DNA of 64,000 nucleotides, taken from the IMG/VR virus record IMGVR_UViG_3300034095_000847; one strand, given 5' to 3'. Made by a program: the position numbers and the translations under genes. This document shows, one piece after another, positions 46,916 to 64,000 of this stretch. Each line of letters begins with the position of its first letter. Within the stretch, counting starts at the first letter, position 1. Below the pieces are notes generated by a model that had not been told where the DNA came from, did not search any database, and saw nothing but the letters and a program-made list of their open reading frames with translations. Source of the stretch: a virus.

Positions 46916-48964
46916 ATGAAGAAACTACTTTTATCCCCTTGGCTTTCCTTAGTAACATTAGGTTTAATTATAGGGTTAAGAGTAGTTGACCCAACATTTG
47001 TAGAGAGTATTCGCCTTCGGTATTTTGATACTCTCCTTACACAAGATATTCAACAATCAGATATAAAAATAGTAAATATAGATGATGCATCCCTAAAAGA
47101 AAAAGGTCAATTCCCATTCCCTCGGAATGAATATGCTAATCTTATTAAGGATTTGTATATCCGAGGTGCTGGTCTTGTTGTTTTTAATCTCTTTATGCCT
47201 GAAACTGATAGATTTGGTCAAGATGATGCCTTAACACAGGTTCTTCAAGAATATCCAGTTGTATTACCTCAAACTGGTACTAATGAACCTTTCACTGAAA
47301 CTTATAAACCATTTAGACCAGGAGTTTCTGTTATAGGTACTGGTGATGTAGGAGTAAAATATGAAAACATACTTCCAAATATACAAGTCTTCAATGATAA
47401 TTCTGTTGGTATTGGTGTCGTTAATACACTCCCAGAAATTGATGGCGTTACCAGACGAATCCCAATGGTGGTCAGTTCCAAAGGATTATTGTATCCGAGT
47501 ATCAGTCTCGAAACCTTGCGTGTTGCATCAGGAGATCCATCATTCCAAGTTAAAGTCAACAATGGATCAATCGAAGCAGTCAGAATACCAAAGTTCGGAA
47601 GAATCAATACAGACTCCCTCGGTCGCATTTGGATTAAACCAAATACCATTAGTGAATATTCATCAAGCAAACTCCCAGAGTCCTTTGGTTCCGCAATCGT
47701 CATTGTTGGACTCACTGGAAGAGGGCTCAACAACCCCGTTGCAACTTCTGCTGGATCAGTCTTTCCACATCACGTTCAAGCAGCAATTTTAGATACACTT
47801 ACAAAAGGTATAAATATCTCAAGACCCGATTGGGCAACTGGTGCAGAGTTACTTACTGTATTGGTATTAAGTATCATATCAATTTTAATAGCAAGGTGGA
47901 AATATGGAATTCTTATATTTTGCGGCATCATTATCTCTCTTTATCCTATTTCTAATTATCTATATACCAACCTATATTATCTTTTCGATATTACATTACC
48001 TGTATTTGCAATTGTCACAGTTTATGGTCACACTTATACGGTCAAATTCTTAACAGAATTAGGTCAGAAACTCCAAATCAAAAAACAATTCGGTTCTTAT
48101 GTTTCACCTATTATGGTAGAGAAACTTCAGAAGAATCCAGAATTGATTAAACTTGGTGGTGAACGTAAAGAACTTTCTATTGTTATGACTGACCTTCGGG
48201 GATTTACTACTCTAGGTGAATCTTATGGTGATGATGTAGAAGGTCTGACTGCCATTATGAACGATTATATGACTGCTATATCAGAACCAGTATTAAAGAA
48301 TGATGGGTGTCTTATCAAGTTTATTGGTGATGCTAGTCTTCACGTTCACGGTGCTCCTTTAGATGATATCAATCACGCAAAGAATGCTGTTAAAACTGCA
48401 TTAGAAATGATTGCTTCTGTTGATGGATTCAATGAAACTTTAGTAGCTCAATGTAAACCAATTATAGGTATGGGAGCAGGCGTTAATACTGGTCAAACTC
48501 TTATAGGTAACATTGGTTCAAAGACTAGATTTGGATATGATGTATTAGGCGACTCAGTATCTACTGCTGCTAGATTAGAAGGTCAAACTAAATCGTATGG
48601 TGTATTATTAATCATTGGACCTGAAACTGCTAAACTTGTCAAAGATGATTACTTTGTTATTAAGTTGGATAACATTGCTGTAAAAGGAAAGACAGTTGGA
48701 TTAGACATCTATACAGTATTACAACCAGATAGATACAATAGATTAGAGTTTGCTAACACTAGAACACTACATAATAAGATGTTAAAGCATTATAAGAAAC
48801 AAGAATGGGCATATGCCATTACACATTGTATGGATTTGAAAGGTTCATTTGATGGTGAATTAGATTACTACTATAATATGATGAGAAAAAGAATAACAGA
48901 ATATATGAATGATGAGTCTTTCCCCAAGAACTGGAAAGGAACTTTTGTGGCAACAAGCAAGTAG
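46916..48964 (+). CDS. CHASE2-domain class III adenylate cyclase
   Basis: IVNIDDASL..KGQFPFPR and DGVTRRIP (CHASE2); TM helices; TDLRGFT, KFIGDA, YDVLGDSVSTAARLEG. Confidence 0.92.
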   Translation: MKKLLLSPWLSLVTLGLIIGLRVVDPTFVESIRLRYFDTLLTQDIQQSDIKIVNIDDASLKEKGQFPFPRNEYANLIKDLYIRGAGLVVFNLFMPETDRFGQDDALTQVLQEYPVVLPQTGTNEPFTETYKPFRPGVSVIGTGDVGVKYENILPNIQVFNDNSVGIGVVNTLPEIDGVTRRIPMVVSSKGLLYPSISLETLRVASGDPSFQVKVNNGSIEAVRIPKFGRINTDSLGRIWIKPNTISEYSSSKLPESFGSAIVIVGLTGRGLNNPVATSAGSVFPHHVQAAILDTLTKGINISRPDWATGAELLTVLVLSIISILIARWKYGILIFCGIIISLYPISNYLYTNLYYLFDITLPVFAIVTVYGHTYTVKFLTELGQKLQIKKQFGSYVSPIMVEKLQKNPELIKLGGERKELSIVMTDLRGFTTLGESYGDDVEGLTAIMNDYMTAISEPVLKNDGCLIKFIGDASLHVHGAPLDDINHAKNAVKTALEMIASVDGFNETLVAQCKPIIGMGAGVNTGQTLIGNIGSKTRFGYDVLGDSVSTAARLEGQTKSYGVLLIIGPETAKLVKDDYFVIKLDNIAVKGKTVGLDIYTVLQPDRYNRLEFANTRTLHNKMLKHYKKQEWAYAITHCMDLKGSFDGELDYYYNMMRKRITEYMNDESFPKNWKGTFVATSK

Positions 48965-56516: not shown

Positions 56517-57851
56517 ATGATACTACAAATACTGAATGAACTTCAAGCAAACAATTCTAGAAACTTCAAAATCGAATTACTTACCAAACATAAAGACAAT
56601 GAACTCCTAAAAGAGGTTTGTAGATTAGCAAATGATCCATTCACCCAGTTCTATCAAAGAAAGATTCCAAAGTATGAACCTAATACTTTTCTCCTAAGTG
56701 ATAATAATCTAGATTGGGCTATCCAAGAATTAGTTGAACAATTAGCTAGTCGCAAAATTACTGGTAATAATGCTATTACACATTTGGAGTTTATTCTTGA
56801 AAATGTAACAGCAAACAACGCCAAGGTCATTGAACGTATCATACAGAAAGACTTGAAGTGTGGTGTTAATACTTCTACAGTCAATAAGGTTTGGAAGAAC
56901 CTAATACCAGAGTTCCCTTGTATGTTATGTTCTCCATTTGAACAGAAGTTGGTTGATAAGATTACATTCCCCGCCATAGTCCAAAAGAAAGAAGATGGTA
57001 TGAGATTTAATGCTATTGTTAAATTTGATAAGGATTTAAAAGGTACAGTTGAGTTTCGTTCAAGGAATGGTAAAGAGATTTCATTACTAGGCAGTCTGGA
57101 AAAAGAATTCATCGAATTAGCATATGGTAAAGATCTTGTGTTTGATGGTGAACTTCTGGTGTATGATACAGTTGAAACAGATTCAAAAGGTAAGATATGT
57201 GATAGGCAAACAGGGAATGGTATCCTAAACAAAGCAGTAAAGGGAACTATATCAAAAGAAGAAGCAGATAGAGTTGTTGCTACTCTTTGGGACCAAATAC
57301 CATATAAAGATTTCCTCGCTGGTAAATGTGACCAGCCTTATAGATATAGATTAAAAAGATTAGACTATCTTTTGGCACGATTACCAAGTGAAGCTAAGAT
57401 TGAATTAGTTGAAACCTTTGAGGTTCATTCATTAGAACAAACTCAAACAATATTCCAAAACTATCTAGATGATGGCGATGAAGGCATCATTCTTAAAGAT
57501 CCAAATTCATTATGGGAAAACAAAAGATCTAAAGGACAAATAAAGTTCAAAGCTGAATTAGATTGCGATCTGAAAGTAATGAGTGTTATATCTGGAACAG
57601 GTAAATATGCTGATGCTATAGGTTCATTATATTGTGAATCTTCTGATGGTAAAGTAAAGGTATATGTTGGTTCAGGATTTACTGATGAGCAAAGAAATGC
57701 ACCACCGAGTGAATACTTTGACAAAATTATTGCTGTGAAGTATAATGCTAGAATCAAGAATGTTCAAGGTGAAGAATCTTTGTTTCTCCCAATATTTTTA
57801 TGTTTGAGACCAGATAAGGATGAAGCAGATAATTCAACTAAAATTAAATAA
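56517..57851 (+). CDS. gp30: ATP-dependent DNA ligase gp30
   Basis: KEDGMR, FDGEL, EGIILK, WENKRS, VGSGFTD, LFLPIF. Confidence 0.95.
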   Translation: MILQILNELQANNSRNFKIELLTKHKDNELLKEVCRLANDPFTQFYQRKIPKYEPNTFLLSDNNLDWAIQELVEQLASRKITGNNAITHLEFILENVTANNAKVIERIIQKDLKCGVNTSTVNKVWKNLIPEFPCMLCSPFEQKLVDKITFPAIVQKKEDGMRFNAIVKFDKDLKGTVEFRSRNGKEISLLGSLEKEFIELAYGKDLVFDGELLVYDTVETDSKGKICDRQTGNGILNKAVKGTISKEEADRVVATLWDQIPYKDFLAGKCDQPYRYRLKRLDYLLARLPSEAKIELVETFEVHSLEQTQTIFQNYLDDGDEGIILKDPNSLWENKRSKGQIKFKAELDCDLKVMSVISGTGKYADAIGSLYCESSDGKVKVYVGSGFTDEQRNAPPSEYFDKIIAVKYNARIKNVQGEESLFLPIFLCLRPDKDEADNSTKIK

Positions 57852-58666: not shown

Positions 58667-61163
58667 ATTCTATACAAGTGTACTACAAGTATCTAATAAC
58701 ATCTTACTTCGAGGTTATGAAGATGGCAAACGAATCCATACAAAGGTTGACTTCAAACCTACCTTATTTGTCTCATCCAAGACTCCAACCAAATGGAAGA
58801 CTCTTACTAATGAATACGTAGGTGAACTACATCCTGGTAGTATAACTGACACTAAAGAGTTTATCAAAAGCTATGGTGAGGTTGAGAATTTCAAAATATA
58901 CGGAATGCAAGACTTCACTAAACAGTTTATATCTGAATATTATCCAGGTGAAATCGAATATGACCAATCAGTAATGAATATCACAACTATTGATATTGAA
59001 ACTACCACTGAGCATGGCTTAAGCATTGATGAAGTTATTAAAGATCCAGTAGAAGAGATTACCCTTATATCAGTAAAAAATAGAAACTCAACTGATATTG
59101 TAACCTTTGGTACAAAGCCGTATGATAAGGTAAATGCTGATGGTCCATATATTAAATGCCAAAGTGAGGCTCATTTACTTCGTGAGTTCATGACTCATTG
59201 GACTTTGAATTATCCTGATATTGTAACAGGTTGGAACACCAACGGATATGACTTTCCATATCTAATCCGTAGAATGGCCAGAATTATAGATGATCAAATC
59301 ATTAATAAATTATCACCTTGGGGTCGTGTTCGTGAACGATTGTATAAAGACCAGAATGGTAATGATAAGATCGGTTATAATATTGAAGGCATTGCAATGC
59401 TTGATTATAAAGAACTATTTGCTAAGTTTGGTAAAATCCCTGTAGATGATATGAAACTTGATACAGTTGCCAATACAGTTCTTGGTGAAAAGAAACTTGA
59501 AAATCCATATAATTCCTTTAAAGACTTTTATACAAAAGATTGGTCATTATTTGTAGACTATAATAGGACCGACGTTAGACTTGTAGATAAATTGGATGAG
59601 AAGCTTAAACTTATTCAGATTGCTGTATCACTTGCATATTATTCAAAGATTAATCTTGACGAAGTATATGGTCCAGTAAATATGTGGGACTCAATCATTT
59701 ATAATAGACTAAAGAACAAGAATATTGTTATACCACCTAAGAAGAATTCTATTAAAACAGGTAAGTATGAAGGTGCATATGTTCAGATACCGGTAGTTGG
59801 CAAACATAAGTACATTGCATCATTCGATTTAGCATCTCTATATCCGCATTTGATTATGCAATACAATATTAGTCCTGAGACTCTTACTGATACTAGAATA
59901 CCTTGTACTGTCGATGAGCTATTATCAAAGTCATTTGATAATTCCCATATTAAAGAGCAGAATTTATCTCTAACTGCAAATGGTTGGTGTTATCGTAAAG
60001 ATGTTCGTGGCTTCTTACCTGAAATTATGGAAGAAGTATATGCCGACCGTAGTAATTATAAAAATGAAATGCTTAAGTATGAGCAGTTAATTGAATCTGA
60101 TAAGTACAATAAAGAATATCAGAATGCTCAAAGTTCTTCCAATGCTATGCAATTAGCAGTAAAAGAAGCATTAAACAGTGTGTATGGCGCAATAGGTAAT
60201 TCATGGTTCAGGTATTATGACTTAAGAATGGCAGAAAGTATTACTCTATCAGGTCAGTTATCTAATCGATGGAATGCTAATATGTTGGATGAGTATTTTA
60301 ACAAAGCAAATAAAACAGAAGATATCCAATATGTTATTGCTGGTGATACCGATTCTAATTATCTAACCTTAGAAGCAGTTGTAGAATCTGTATGTCCTGA
60401 TAAATCTATCAATGAAAAGATAGCTTTCATGGATACATTCTGTGCTAAAATAATTGAACCTTTGATTGACCGTTCATATATAAAAATGGCAGACTATATG
60501 AATGCCTATGAACAGAAAATGAAAATGAAACGTGAAGTATTGGCTGACGTTGGAGTATTTGTAGCCAAGAAAAGATACTTTCTTCGAGTACATAATTCTG
60601 AAGGTGTTCAATATGCTGAACCTAAACTAAAAGTAACTGGCCTAGAGTTGGTTAAGTCTTCTACACCTCAGGTATGTAGGAAAAAACTAAAAGACTCATT
60701 GAATATTATATTAGATGGTGATCAAGATCAAATCAATAAGTATGTGAATGACTTTAAAATTGAGTTCGAATCTCTTGCTTCATCAAGTATTGGTCGACCT
60801 TCAGGTATTAATGGTCTTAAGAAGTTTAGTGATAAGACTAATGTATTTGCTAAAGGTACTCCCATGCATGTACGCGGAGCTCTTTGGTATAATCATTTAA
60901 TAGACAAATATAAACTATCAAAGACACATGAAAAAATACTTGACAGTGATAAAGTAAAGGTAGTGTTCTTGAGAACTCCAAATCCCATTAATCAAAATGT
61001 AATATCCATCAAAGATAAAATACCGGAAGAATTTGGATTAGAAAAATATATCGATTATGATACACAATTTGAAAAAGTATTTATAAACCCTCTTCAAATT
61101 ATGCTTGAACCAATCGGTTGGAAATTAAATAACTCAGCAAACCTGGATGAATTTTTTGGATAA
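58659..61163 (+). CDS. gp43: family B DNA polymerase gp43
   Basis: DIETT, GWNTNGYD, SFDLASLYP, K..LNSVYG, GDTDS, KKRY. Confidence 0.97.
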   Translation: MSKFYTSVLQVSNNILLRGYEDGKRIHTKVDFKPTLFVSSKTPTKWKTLTNEYVGELHPGSITDTKEFIKSYGEVENFKIYGMQDFTKQFISEYYPGEIEYDQSVMNITTIDIETTTEHGLSIDEVIKDPVEEITLISVKNRNSTDIVTFGTKPYDKVNADGPYIKCQSEAHLLREFMTHWTLNYPDIVTGWNTNGYDFPYLIRRMARIIDDQIINKLSPWGRVRERLYKDQNGNDKIGYNIEGIAMLDYKELFAKFGKIPVDDMKLDTVANTVLGEKKLENPYNSFKDFYTKDWSLFVDYNRTDVRLVDKLDEKLKLIQIAVSLAYYSKINLDEVYGPVNMWDSIIYNRLKNKNIVIPPKKNSIKTGKYEGAYVQIPVVGKHKYIASFDLASLYPHLIMQYNISPETLTDTRIPCTVDELLSKSFDNSHIKEQNLSLTANGWCYRKDVRGFLPEIMEEVYADRSNYKNEMLKYEQLIESDKYNKEYQNAQSSSNAMQLAVKEALNSVYGAIGNSWFRYYDLRMAESITLSGQLSNRWNANMLDEYFNKANKTEDIQYVIAGDTDSNYLTLEAVVESVCPDKSINEKIAFMDTFCAKIIEPLIDRSYIKMADYMNAYEQKMKMKREVLADVGVFVAKKRYFLRVHNSEGVQYAEPKLKVTGLELVKSSTPQVCRKKLKDSLNIILDGDQDQINKYVNDFKIEFESLASSSIGRPSGINGLKKFSDKTNVFAKGTPMHVRGALWYNHLIDKYKLSKTHEKILDSDKVKVVFLRTPNPINQNVISIKDKIPEEFGLEKYIDYDTQFEKVFINPLQIMLEPIGWKLNNSANLDEFFG

Positions 61164-61704
61164 TATTAGAATAATTAAAACTGGAATTAATGTCTCAAAG
61201 ATATTAAAACAATTAGAAAAGTATCCTAATGATTGGGGTGCTCAAAAAACAATGGAAGGAGCATTGTCTATGCTTGACAAAGGTTTTCCTGAAATTAGTG
61301 CAGGTGTTCTTCAATTAGTAATGGGTGGTGTTGAGAACATAGATCAATATGTTGGAGATACAGATATTTGCGTAGAAACTCCTGCATATAAAAGGCATAC
61401 TGAAATAGTAGGTTTTCTGAAACGTAATTTCAAAAATTCCAGTAGATGTGGTTTTTTATCTTTACCTATTGGTGGAATAGTTGGTAGGCATATTGATATT
61501 GGAGATTATTATCTTACAAGAGATAGGTATCATTTATCAATTCAAGGAACTTATCGATATTCAGTAGGAGATGAATCTGTTATTGTAGAACCTGGAACAT
61601 TACTTTGGTTTAATAATAAGTTAGAACATGGAACAGAAAACTTAGGCGATTGTATAAGAATTACCTTTGTATTCGATGTACCACATTCTAAAAATAATCC
61701 ATAA
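61147..61704 (+). CDS. 2OG-Fe(II) dioxygenase (Asp/Asn beta-hydroxylase-like)
   Basis: HID...RYHLSI...GTLLWFNNKLEH...RITFVFD. Confidence 0.8.
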   Translation: MNFLDNIRIIKTGINVSKILKQLEKYPNDWGAQKTMEGALSMLDKGFPEISAGVLQLVMGGVENIDQYVGDTDICVETPAYKRHTEIVGFLKRNFKNSSRCGFLSLPIGGIVGRHIDIGDYYLTRDRYHLSIQGTYRYSVGDESVIVEPGTLLWFNNKLEHGTENLGDCIRITFVFDVPHSKNNP

Positions 61705-61769
61705 TAATAGTTTACAATATTAATAATTTATATTATAATAGTTGAATAAATTAACAAATGAGGTAATTA

Positions 61770-62633
61770 ATGAGTGCATTATTAGAACGAATTAAAAAGA
61801 ATAGTACGATTAAAGATTCTTCAATATTATCATCTTCAAAGTTCTTTACTAAGAAAGATATGGTAACAACTCCAATCCCTGCTCTTAATATCGCATTATC
61901 CGGTAGAATTGATGGTGGATTAACTCCAGGTCTTACTTTATTTTGTGGACCAAGTAAGCATTTTAAATCATTATTCTCTTTGATACTTGCTAAGTCTTAT
62001 ATGGATAAGTATCCAGAATCTGTATTGATATTCTATGATTGTGAATTTGGTACGCCCGAATCTTATTTCGATTCTCTTGCCATTGATAAAGAACGGGTAA
62101 TACATACACCCATTATGAATATGGAAGAGTTTAAATTTGATGTAATACATCAATTACAAGAAATTAAACGTGGTGATAAAGTTATCTTTATTATAGATTC
62201 ACTTGGTAATATGTCGTCAAAGAAAGAAATGGACGATGCTATTGATGGTAAATCTGTTACAGATATGTCAAGAGCAAAGCAAATGAAGTCTATCTTTAGG
62301 ATGATAACTCCATATCTAGTTAAGTATGATATCCCAATGGTTGCAGTAAATCATATCTATATGTGTGGAACTGAAGAAATGGAAGTTATCTCAGATAAAG
62401 GATCTATAAGCTTAAAAGATATTATTCCAGGAATGTTAGTAGAAACTACTAAAGGTCTTCAACCAGTAACAAATGTTTTTAAATACGAAGATGCCTTTAT
62501 TACAGATATTGAAATGGAAGATGGAACTATATTATCATTTACTCAAGGTCATAAGTTTATGATAAATGGTGAATGGGTTTTAGTTGAGGATTTAGTTGAA
62601 GGAATGGAATTGGATGTGAAATCAGGTTTTTAA
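61770..62633 (+). CDS. uvsX: UvsX recombinase N-terminal fragment (198 aa) fused to a split-intein N-half (89 aa)
   Basis: GPSKHFKS Walker A, IDSLGN, AVNHIYM, then CGTEEMEV...FTQGHKF (intein blocks A and B) from 62364. Confidence 0.92.
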   Translation: MSALLERIKKNSTIKDSSILSSSKFFTKKDMVTTPIPALNIALSGRIDGGLTPGLTLFCGPSKHFKSLFSLILAKSYMDKYPESVLIFYDCEFGTPESYFDSLAIDKERVIHTPIMNMEEFKFDVIHQLQEIKRGDKVIFIIDSLGNMSSKKEMDDAIDGKSVTDMSRAKQMKSIFRMITPYLVKYDIPMVAVNHIYMCGTEEMEVISDKGSISLKDIIPGMLVETTKGLQPVTNVFKYEDAFITDIEMEDGTILSFTQGHKFMINGEWVLVEDLVEGMELDVKSGF

Positions 62634-63545
62634 TAAATAAATCATATATACATTTTAAAGGAATTAAAAATATGGATTATTTAAAGCATTATGAATTATT
62701 AATTAATAGAGCAAAAAATAGAACAAAACTTATTGGGTATATTGAAAAACACCACATTGTTCCTAGATGTGTAGGTGGTACTGATGATGAGGAAAATATT
62801 TGTGAATTAACTGCTGAAGAACATTATGTAGCACATCAACTTCTAGCAAAAATGAATCCAGATAATATAGGTTTATGGTCAGCCTGCAAATTGATGAGCA
62901 AAAGATGCGGGGTGACTAATAATAAAGTATATGGTTGGATAAGAAAAAAATCAAATATTTTGGTTGGCAAATCAATATCAAAATCTTATGTAGACAAGAA
63001 AGATAAAATTGCGATATTAGCAGGATTTAAAAATTATGACGATATTTCAAAAACCATATGGCACTTATTTATTAATGAAAAACTACATTATAATACTATA
63101 ACAGAAAAATTTGATATAAAACGCTATTTTGTGACAAAGTCTTTACAACAATATTCAGACAATAATAATTTAAGTGATATTTTTAAACAAGGCCAATATG
63201 ATCTTAAATGCAGAAGTCAAAAAATAGGTAGATCTAAATTTACAAAAGAACAAGAAACTTGTAGGATAAATTCGGTAAAATCTATGGATTATGCATCAAG
63301 AACATTGAAAACTGGAAGTAGAATTGGTGAATTAAATCCAGTATTTGGTAAAACTTGGGTACATAAAATTTTATTATGTCCGCATTGTAATAAAGAAGTT
63401 GGCGGTAAACGTTGGCATTTTGATAATTGTAGGAGTAAAAATGAAAATAAAATCGATTAAATTTAATACCAGAAGAGCAGATGTTTATGATATTGAGACT
63501 CCAACACATGATTATATATTAAAGAATGGAATAATTTCGCATAAT
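62364..63545 (+). mobile_element. naturally split intein (IntN 62364-62630, IntC 63441-63545) with an intervening HNH endonuclease gene
   Basis: Cys1, TxxH, VYDI, terminal SHN and Thr+1; the joined exteins restore a contiguous UvsX. Confidence 0.9.
62672..63460 (+). CDS. free-standing HNH homing endonuclease (MobE-like)
   Basis: YIEKHHIVPRCVGGTDDEENICELTAEEHYVAHQLL; C-terminal CPHC...WHFDNC; AAGGA RBS; AATAAATA at 62632. Confidence 0.88.
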   Translation: MDYLKHYELLINRAKNRTKLIGYIEKHHIVPRCVGGTDDEENICELTAEEHYVAHQLLAKMNPDNIGLWSACKLMSKRCGVTNNKVYGWIRKKSNILVGKSISKSYVDKKDKIAILAGFKNYDDISKTIWHLFINEKLHYNTITEKFDIKRYFVTKSLQQYSDNNNLSDIFKQGQYDLKCRSQKIGRSKFTKEQETCRINSVKSMDYASRTLKTGSRIGELNPVFGKTWVHKILLCPHCNKEVGGKRWHFDNCRSKNENKID

Positions 63546-64000
63546 ACACAAGAGATGTACAGTAAACCAGTAGTATCTGGTGGAACAGGTATATACCTTT
63601 CAGCCGATAACATCTTTATACTTGGTCGTCAACAAGAGAAAGATGGAACTGAGTTAGCAGGTTATAACTTTATCATTAATGTAGAGAAGTCTAGACAGTC
63701 CCGTGAAAAGTCCAAGATACCAGTTACAGTTAAATTTGAAGGTGGTATTAGTAAATGGTCAGGTTTATTGGAAATGTCTTTAGAATCAGGTCATGTAATT
63801 AAACCAAGTAATGGTTGGTATTCAAAAGTTAACACTGAAACAGGCGAAGTAGAAGATAAAAAGTACAGAATAAAAGATACTGATACTAAAGACTTTTGGT
63901 TACCTATTATATCAAGTACCAGTTTCCAAGAATGGATTAAAAAGAATTATCAAGTTTCAAATGGTGCTATTATATCAGATGAATCTATTGAAGAAGAATT
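63441..64000 (+). CDS. uvsX: split-intein C-half (35 aa) fused to the UvsX C-terminal fragment; runs off the window
   Basis: AGGAG RBS at 63431; MKIKSIKFNTRRADVYDIETPTHDYILKNGIISHN/TQEMYSKPVVSGGTGIYLSADNIFILGRQQEKDG...NVEKSR...KWSGLL...KPSNGWY; not in the ORF track. Confidence 0.92.
   Translation, partial: MKIKSIKFNTRRADVYDIETPTHDYILKNGIISHNTQEMYSKPVVSGGTGIYLSADNIFILGRQQEKDGTELAGYNFIINVEKSRQSREKSKIPVTVKFEGGISKWSGLLEMSLESGHVIKPSNGWYSKVNTETGEVEDKKYRIKDTDTKDFWLPIISSTSFQEWIKKNYQVSNGAIISDESIEEE

Follow-up and report, generated by a model that had tools for sequence, protein, structure and literature searches.

Split inteins that flank a free-standing endonuclease gene within a fractured host gene are known for several phage genes, namely gp41, NrdA, and NrdJ (PMC2677866). 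In ocean metagenomes, the hosts of such fractured genes were gp41 (gp41-1 to gp41-9), NrdA, NrdJ, IMPDH, DnaE, a ligase, and a terminase; the endonucleases at these loci were GIY-YIG or Vsr-like, and HNH enzymes were merely predicted to be able to fracture genes (Dassa et al., 2009; PMC2677866). In Aeromonas phage Aeh1, studied by Edgell and co-workers, nrdA is split by the HNH gene mobE, and the nuclease is expressed late, as summarised in two reports (PMC2677866, PMC3045599). Here, we describe the uvsX recombinase gene in 64,000 nucleotides of virus DNA (IMG/VR record IMGVR_UViG_3300034095_000847), a stretch that we refer to as the window. In this DNA of an uncultured lake T4-like phage, uvsX is a "fractured gene" that has been split by a selfish cassette into two genes. 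A sequence-only reading of the window had already drawn the parallel to the fractured genes of other phages, which the literature bears out.

Our preferred reading, to which we assign a probability of about 0.88, is that the fractured uvsX carries a split intein together with an HNH endonuclease gene, and that the cassette acts by protein trans-splicing and homing. The split-intein assignment is supported by the catalytic residues, the profile matches, a one-piece relative, an empty allele, purifying selection, and the absence of an RNA intron match. What we could observe directly comprises the anatomy and homology of the locus, the precise empty allele, horizontal movement of the cassette, and the purifying selection acting on it.

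Results

Organization of the fractured uvsX locus

The first of the two genes is an open reading frame (ORF) of 287 amino acids (61770–62633), composed of 198 residues of UvsX and an 89-residue extension that starts with CGTEEMEV, contains FTQGH, and ends at a stop codon (62631–62633). The phrog_97 match of this ORF is confined to residues 1–198. The Cys1 codon of the extension (62364–62366) directly follows the N-terminal host part (N-extein), a boundary that is set by the empty allele described below. The second gene, here called the C-gene, starts with an ATG at 63441, which is preceded by AGGAG 5 nucleotides upstream. Its first 35 codons end in ..NGIISHN; next come TQEMYSKPVVSGGTG and the C-terminal domain of UvsX (Pfam T4_UVSX_C, PF21134, E = 2.6e-18). 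The complete C-extein comprises 164 amino acids in two relatives of the window, the contigs L004 and G001:C1. The HNH gene lies between the two uvsX genes, and its last 20 nucleotides overlap the C-gene in a different frame. All features are listed in Table 1, in which IntN and IntC denote the N- and C-terminal intein halves.

Table 1. Coordinates of the features of the uvsX locus in the window and of two related site-b loci in cultured phages
Feature	Position	Strand	Remarks
Sigma-70-like promoter candidate	61711–61739	+	TTTACA, 17 nt, TATAAT; upstream of the uvsX N-gene; 11 of 12 consensus matches
UvsX N-extein, residues 1–198, ending ..VAVNHIYM	61770–62363	+	phrog_97 UvsX-like recombinase, E = 2.4e-63
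IntN, 89 aa and stop codon	62364–62633	+	Cys1, block B Thr60..His63, acidic, pI 4.1; gp41-1 profile match
Spacer, 38 nt (62634–62671)	62632–62671	+	Late-promoter-like motif and HNH ribosome-binding site; range given for the whole feature
Late-promoter-like motif AATAAATA	62632–62639	+	Overlaps the IntN stop codon; putative promoter function
HNH ribosome-binding site AAGGA	62658–62662	+	Within the spacer
Free-standing HNH homing endonuclease gene, 262 aa	62672–63460	+	Pfam HNH and phrog_655
Shine-Dalgarno sequence AGGAG of the C-gene	63431–63435	+	Inside the HNH codons for Arg-Ser
IntC, 35 aa	63441–63545	+	ATG 63441; basic start, block F VYDIE..H, block G ..SHN
UvsX C-extein from Thr+1 (TQEMYSKPVVSGGTG..)	63546–64000	+	Continues past the window end
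Site-b locus L010	NC_031047: 99514–101999		Escherichia phage HY03
Site-b locus L011	MT457552: 58381–60781		Shewanella phage Thanatos-1

The mobile cassette thus spans 1182 nucleotides (62364–63545) and sits in frame between uvsX codons 198 and 199, at the start of the UvsX region that aligns with the RecA L2 DNA-binding loop. On the basis of the 198 N-extein residues and the colinearity with T4 UvsX, the insertion point (residues 198/199) lies three residues past His195. We take this histidine, at the start of loop L2, to act as an allosteric switch and to correspond to Gln194 of RecA; our literature search found no confirmation of this role. Each intein half is encoded by a gene of its own, complete with stop or start codon and ribosome-binding site, and this arrangement is conserved in six cassettes. 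On recheck, the coordinates, residue counts, and gene boundaries that the sequence-only reading had given for 61770–63545 and beyond all held, and the previously unannotated C-gene with its AGGAG sequence, its 35-residue C-half, and Thr+1 was present as described.

Residues and homology of the intein halves

Profiles were built from five IntN and six IntC sequences, and both were searched against the PDB. The expectation that both halves would be recognized in an intein search was borne out, since each matched solved inteins. The IntN profile aligned with the cyanophage-like gp41-1 split intein (6QAZ) at positions 7–85 of 86 with an E value of 4.8e-9. All 30 PDB matches listed for the IntC profile (E up to 1) were intein C-termini, and the best of them was the IntC of Npu DnaE (4QFQ_B, 37 residues), which was matched end to end with E = 4.8e-5. 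The Pfam family Intein_splicing aligned with the N-half at profile positions 37–86 of 155 (E = 0.023) and with the C-half at positions 122–155 of 155 (E = 1.6e-4). IntN also matched two designed beta-propellers, Ika8 and Tako8, through sums of weak repeats (each with an i-Evalue above 4), and these matches were disregarded.

The residues expected of a splicing domain are found at their positions in both halves. Cys1 is invariant among the aligned IntN sequences. Block B consists of Thr60-Gln-Gly-His63, and its Thr and His are invariant among the variants that occupy the same insertion point as the window intein (site a). IntC reads VYDIETPTHDY..ISHN, with Thr as the next residue. All six sequences share the block F Asp (D17), the terminal His34-Asn35, and Thr+1, and the four site-a sequences share the block F His (H23). 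The charge counts made earlier proved exact: IntN contains 18 Asp or Glu residues and 6 Lys, with no Arg and an isoelectric point (pI) of 4.1, and the first 13 residues of IntC include five Lys or Arg and no acidic residue. Hidden Markov models of IntN and IntC detected no other intein half of this family in the window. Proteins of 504–2000 amino acids that contain this IntN, for instance with an embedded nuclease domain, were searched for and not found; we rate this search as weak evidence. Together, residues and homology support the assignment of the two extensions as putative halves of a class 1 intein (Hint domain).

Empty sites and one-piece relatives

The phage contig G001:C1 (103.6 kb) is 97.7–99.6% identical to the window over the aligned stretches, from position 47619 to the window end. 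It lacks exactly the nucleotides 62364–63545, from Cys1 through the terminal Asn, and encodes an intact UvsX of 362 amino acids (..VAVNHIYMTQEMYSKPVVSGGTG..). Only three mismatches separate contig and window in about 1300 nucleotides of flank, one of them in the last 880 nucleotides of the upstream flank. The exteins of this 362-residue UvsX are identical to those of the window, and the protein aligned with T4 UvsX (3IO5) with E = 6.4e-111. The alignment has no gap at the junction, which confirms the colinearity of the joined exteins with T4 UvsX that had been stated in the sequence-only reading. The same joint, 62363 to 63546, was found in lake-metagenome DNA contigs from two sequencing runs, which skip 1182 nucleotides with zero positional ambiguity. 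One of these runs also contains an occupied contig that is identical to the window (zero differences). G001:C1 itself is a nearly complete phage-like contig that was binned in a bacterial assembly (3.2 Mb, 280 contigs), which is either a binning artefact or a hint at the host.

Inteins in one piece occur at the same site. The ENA metagenome protein P0011 (427 amino acids) contains a contiguous mini-intein that reads ..NHIYM, CGTED...VISHN, TQEMF.. at its borders and is 69% identical to IntN. This mini-intein aligned with residues 10–136 of 137 of the Npu DnaE intein (4KL6, E = 1.4e-7). A second protein, P0047, is a complete recombinase of 489 amino acids with a contiguous mini-intein at site a. 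Compared with these contiguous forms, the window intein is split where they have a short linker, the place at which intein endonuclease domains usually sit. P0011 reaches 50.1 bits with Pfam Intein_splicing, but its best stretch (350–423) falls in a second intein of the type found at site b (see below). P0011 is a double-intein uvsX, in which a site-b-type N-half (CLEKGT..) begins 13 extein residues after site a and extends to the protein end.

Mobility, conservation, and selection

The IMG/VR contig L004 (65 kb) carries a cassette with four differences in 1182 nucleotides compared to the window, corresponding to 99.7% identity. Outside the cassette, the nucleotide identity is 90% in the exteins and 87% in the upstream gene, and the nearest extein mismatches lie 16 nucleotides before the N-junction and 15 nucleotides after the C-junction. 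A near-identical cassette in the diverged L004 and empty alleles in a near-identical background point to a recent horizontal transfer of the whole IntN-HNH-IntC unit. The cassette thus moves between genomes and, judged by these comparisons, is genuine, conserved, and currently mobile. Two synonymous differences next to the junction (63554 GAG/GAA, 63560 TAC/TAT) were considered as a basis of target-site immunity and rejected, as an empty allele in run X19 also reads GAG and L004 reads TAT.

The order of the three genes is kept in six cassette variants, namely the window/L004, L005/L016, L013/L014/L018, L007, L012, and the P0012 and P0014 types. Among these, IntN identity falls to 64% at the protein level (66% at the nucleotide level), and the nucleotide identity of the HNH gene falls to 60%. 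Conserved throughout are the overlap of the HNH 3' end with the IntC start, by 4–26 nucleotides in every variant, and the Shine-Dalgarno sequence of the C-gene, AGGAG or AGGAA in all six cassettes. The spacers before the HNH gene measure 38–49 nucleotides across the cassettes. Neither a frameshift nor a premature stop was found in any of the six variants. Pairwise ratios of nonsynonymous to synonymous substitution rates (dN/dS, Nei-Gojobori) were 0.03–0.22 for IntN, 0–0.20 for IntC, 0.14–0.46 for HNH, and 0.05–0.33 for the exteins. By these values, strong purifying selection acts on the intein halves, which are constrained to the same degree as the recombinase.

The HNH gene and expression signals

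The gene between the uvsX halves had been read as an HNH gene, and the comparison with families agrees: its product matched Pfam HNH (PF01844) with E = 2.4e-5 and 24.8 bits, above the cutoff of 21.4, and the "homing endonuclease" family phrog_655 with E = 6e-46. Mob-like HNH genes in 949 phage records match the protein along its entire length with ~35% identity. Two further HNH sequences were noted. The contig G001:C223 carries a 69%-identical relative of the 5' part of the HNH gene. L012, which stems from a more distant phage with the same uvsX cassette, has a second, different HNH gene (249 amino acids, L012:1479–2228) directly upstream of uvsX, the end of which overlaps the uvsX start.

Conservation of the spacer upstream of the HNH gene exceeds that of the coding sequence on either side, with ATAAATA in all five variants compared. 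The longer motif ATAAATA(A/G)(A/T)TCATA..TAC (62632–62655) is invariant in the window, L005, L007, L012, and L014, the HNH genes of which are 60–72% identical; the genes flanking the motif have diverged to 60–77% identity. The full T4 late-promoter consensus TATAAATA is present in two of the five spacer variants. From this pattern we infer that the motif may be a T4-type late promoter with a conserved start region and, by analogy with the late expression reported for Aeh1 mobE, that the HNH nuclease would be expressed late. The sigma-70-like site upstream of uvsX is the best in the region, but it is a consensus match only and the total number of such sites is not above that in shuffled sequences. 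A hairpin over the HNH ribosome-binding site was rejected, as the fold of 62596–62700 was no better than that of shuffled sequences (z = 0.53).

Further UvsX inteins

A tblastn search with the C-gene revealed another uvsX split intein in cultured T4-like phages, among them Escherichia phage HY03 and Shewanella phage Thanatos-1. It is inserted 13 residues downstream of site a (..MTGG, then TG..), at a position that we call site b. Its layout is a Cys1/Thr+1 split intein of 96 + 35 amino acids around a homing endonuclease gene, which is GIY-YIG/Seg-like in Thanatos-1 according to the annotation and is annotated just as homing endonuclease in HY03. The identity to the window is 34% for IntN and 44% for IntC. 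The site-b intein occurs in 25 GenBank records of Escherichia, Salmonella, Proteus, Enterobacter, Klebsiella, Pseudomonas, Yersinia, Vibrio, and Shewanella phages, and the carriers (Straboviridae) include Proteus phage PM2, Yersinia phage TG1, and Vibrio phage vB_VmeM-32. None of the 25 records is annotated as intein; the labels are recombinase, DNA repair protein, uvsX_2, hypothetical protein, and even portal protein. The statement in the sequence-only reading that no UvsX example was known therefore needs to be divided. It stands for the literature that we searched, in which no paper names UvsX as an intein host (subscription-only papers lie outside this search), but GenBank already holds the site-b split inteins.

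A tblastn search of the window IntN against 50,697 phage records gave no match; to date, metagenomes are thus the only known source of the site-a intein. An exhaustive profile search (E up to 0.001) yielded 249 cluster representatives. Among the closest ones that we inspected, the majority were metagenomic RecA-like N-fragments that end in an intein N-half, with insertions at site a (after NHxYx), at a point three residues further on, and at site b (after GGG).

Neighbouring regions of the window

Just upstream of uvsX, at 61147–61704, the window encodes a cupin or Asp-Arg-hydroxylase-like protein (PF05118, E = 5e-6). The ORFs upstream of fractured gp41 loci in cyanophage-like contigs include UvsX and a 2-oxoglutarate oxygenase (Dassa et al., 2009; PMC2677866). 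Farther upstream, about 150 nucleotides of the window (56669–56819, compared with L009 9054–9195) do not align with the otherwise 98–99% identical G001:C1.

Discussion

On the preferred reading, the phage would make two precursors, UvsX(1–198)-IntN with 287 amino acids and IntC-UvsX(199–362) with 199 amino acids. The acidic IntN and the basic start of IntC may then associate and fold into a class 1 Hint domain, in which Cys1, the block B Thr and His, the block F Asp and His, the terminal His-Asn, and Thr+1 would catalyse protein trans-splicing. The predicted product is a UvsX of 362 amino acids, identical to the one that intein-free relatives encode directly. The HNH enzyme, whose gene is probably under its own late-type promoter, would cut or nick the intein-free uvsX of co-infecting phages, and repair would copy the whole cassette in (homing).

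Several points weigh against this reading or temper it. The N- and C-halves score 14.9 and 22.0 bits with Pfam Intein_splicing, both under the gathering score of 35.8; this cutoff was set for the whole domain, and scores below it are expected of halves. Block A (CGTEEMEV) is atypical, with Gly at position 2 and neither Thr nor Ser at position 6, and Thr is rarer than Cys or Ser as the +1 nucleophile. Prediction of the complex between IntN (with 8 extein residues) and IntC (with 15) gave a score of 0.60, and the best of three controls gave 0.00. At least 89% of the contacts agreed between the runs, and the pLDDT (predicted local distance difference test) of the partner was at least 65. The mark applied here is reached by 51 of 78 solved complexes and by 2 of 108 mismatched pairs. 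However, scores of 0.60 or less include just 5 of the 78 solved complexes and all 4 passing mismatches (of 180), and as split-intein complexes are already in the PDB, the pass may reflect likeness only. We regard the prediction as weak support. The RNA run X24 contains only relatives of IntN-HNH and of the C-extein with 90–94% identity and gives no information on whether this allele is transcribed or spliced. By reasoning from sequence, trans-splicing has the best support of the mechanisms considered, the spliced UvsX is a predicted product, and cutting of uvsX by the HNH enzyme is likewise a prediction.

Among the alternatives, we regard it as improbable that the UvsX fragments assemble non-covalently, with the intein halves serving as docking domains only and without formation of a peptide bond. 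Such an assembly has a precedent in the nrdA halves of phage Aeh1, which are split by mobE and are reported to function without splicing (PMC2677866, PMC3045599), and it would be compatible with the fact that trans-splicing of UvsX is here deduced from sequence. Docking domains, however, would not need the catalytic residues, all of which are kept in variants down to 64% identity with dN/dS values of 0–0.22. Moreover, a Hint domain of 124 residues left at the start of the L2 loop, three residues past the presumed switch residue His195, would probably disturb the filament. Still less credible is an inactivated uvsX, in a phage that lacks its own recombinase or uses the RecA of its host and in which the intein halves are decaying relics. 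Selfish insertions can kill genes, and beyond this general possibility nothing specific speaks for it; even between deeply diverged cassettes, purifying selection acts on the exteins as well as on the two intein halves, the six variants are free of frameshifts and stops, and the C-gene has kept its ribosome-binding site and start.

We consider it extremely improbable that the interruption is removed at the RNA level, as a group I or group II intron, or skipped by the ribosome. T4-like phages do have group I introns with homing endonuclease genes, and recA of a Bacillus phage has one (PMC3239194). In the window, however, no Rfam family was found at E up to 1 in 61700–64000, the fold of the spacer is not significant (z = 0.53), the element begins and ends exactly at codon borders, with Cys1 and the terminal Asn as its limits, and the flanking extensions are both Hint halves by profile search. 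An assembly artefact or chimeric contig, which comes to mind because the window stems from a metagenome and both alleles are present in at least one sample, is equally hard to credit, as the occupied form was assembled independently in contigs of several projects (L004/L017, L005/L015, L016, L007, L012, L013, L014, L018) and is also found in several sequencing runs. We therefore retain protein trans-splicing and homing of the split-intein cassette as the preferred reading.

UvsX is the recombinase needed for T4 intron homing (PMC2988022). As the cassette sits in this very recombinase, the element would persist only if splicing restores UvsX. The natural lake populations show a split intein and an endonuclease gene moving as a unit with almost no co-conversion of the flanks. 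A wider picture is offered tentatively, and we think it rather more doubtful than not. In this picture, the UvsX stretch that aligns with L2 would be a hotspot for inteins, with the three insertion points named above as independent sites, and the site-a cassette a currently homing split intein with a late-expressed HNH enzyme, the spread of which depends on the recombinase that it interrupts. Empty, contiguous, and split alleles would coexist in lake phages as natural intermediates of split-intein origin, and the compact Cys1/Thr+1 pair would be efficient and orthogonal to existing tools.

For protein engineering, the window offers a natural compact split intein (89 + 35 amino acids) with an unusual Cys1/Thr+1 pair and the junctions ..IYM / TQE.., and diverged natural variants as well as one-piece relatives are available for comparison. 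A use as an orthogonal ligation tool would be plausible. The findings also bear on annotation, as public phage genomes list such uvsX halves as recombinase, DNA repair protein, or hypothetical protein.

In its layout, the locus resembles the fractured genes described by Dassa et al. (2009). In both cases, a single strand carries the N-part of the host with IntN, a short spacer, an endonuclease gene, and IntC with the C-part of the host, and the hosts include phage replication or recombination genes. The spacer measures 38 nucleotides in the window compared to 27–51 nucleotides in the loci of Dassa et al., IntN 89 compared to 88–105 amino acids, and IntC 35 compared to 33–54 amino acids. In those loci, however, UvsX is a neighbouring gene only and not the fractured host. 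The window further differs in its HNH nuclease and in Thr+1, and its mobility is documented directly by an empty allele and by a near-identical cassette in a diverged background. Phage Aeh1 likewise has a Mob-type HNH gene between the halves of an essential gene of a T4-like phage, and the window spacer contains a late-promoter-like motif; the nrdA arrangement, in contrast, is without an intein, and its halves are reported to associate without splicing (PMC2677866, PMC3045599).

Among solved inteins, gp41-1 (6QAZ, 6RIZ) and Npu DnaE (4KL5, 4KL6, 4QFQ) share with the window the split point, the acidic IntN and basic start of IntC, and the class 1 residues. They differ in the host protein, the similarity is detectable by profiles only, and the window intein has an unusual Cys-Gly start of block A. 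The +1 residue is Ser in gp41-1 and Cys in DnaE, whereas it is Thr in the window. The site-b UvsX intein has the same host protein, the fractured layout, Cys1, and Thr+1 in common with the window; it is inserted 13 residues downstream and has an IntN of 96 amino acids. The C-terminus of the Pyrococcus horikoshii RadA intein (2LQM, 4E2T) matches the IntC profile through the +1 position (E = 9e-4), which is Thr in this intein, and inteins are also known from mycobacterial RecA. These hosts belong to the RecA family like that of the window, but their inteins are contiguous and reside in cellular genes. Thus, the uvsX locus is not a new kind of system; rather, it adds to the known fractured genes UvsX as a host that is new to the literature searched, an HNH nuclease in the fractured layout, and Thr+1.

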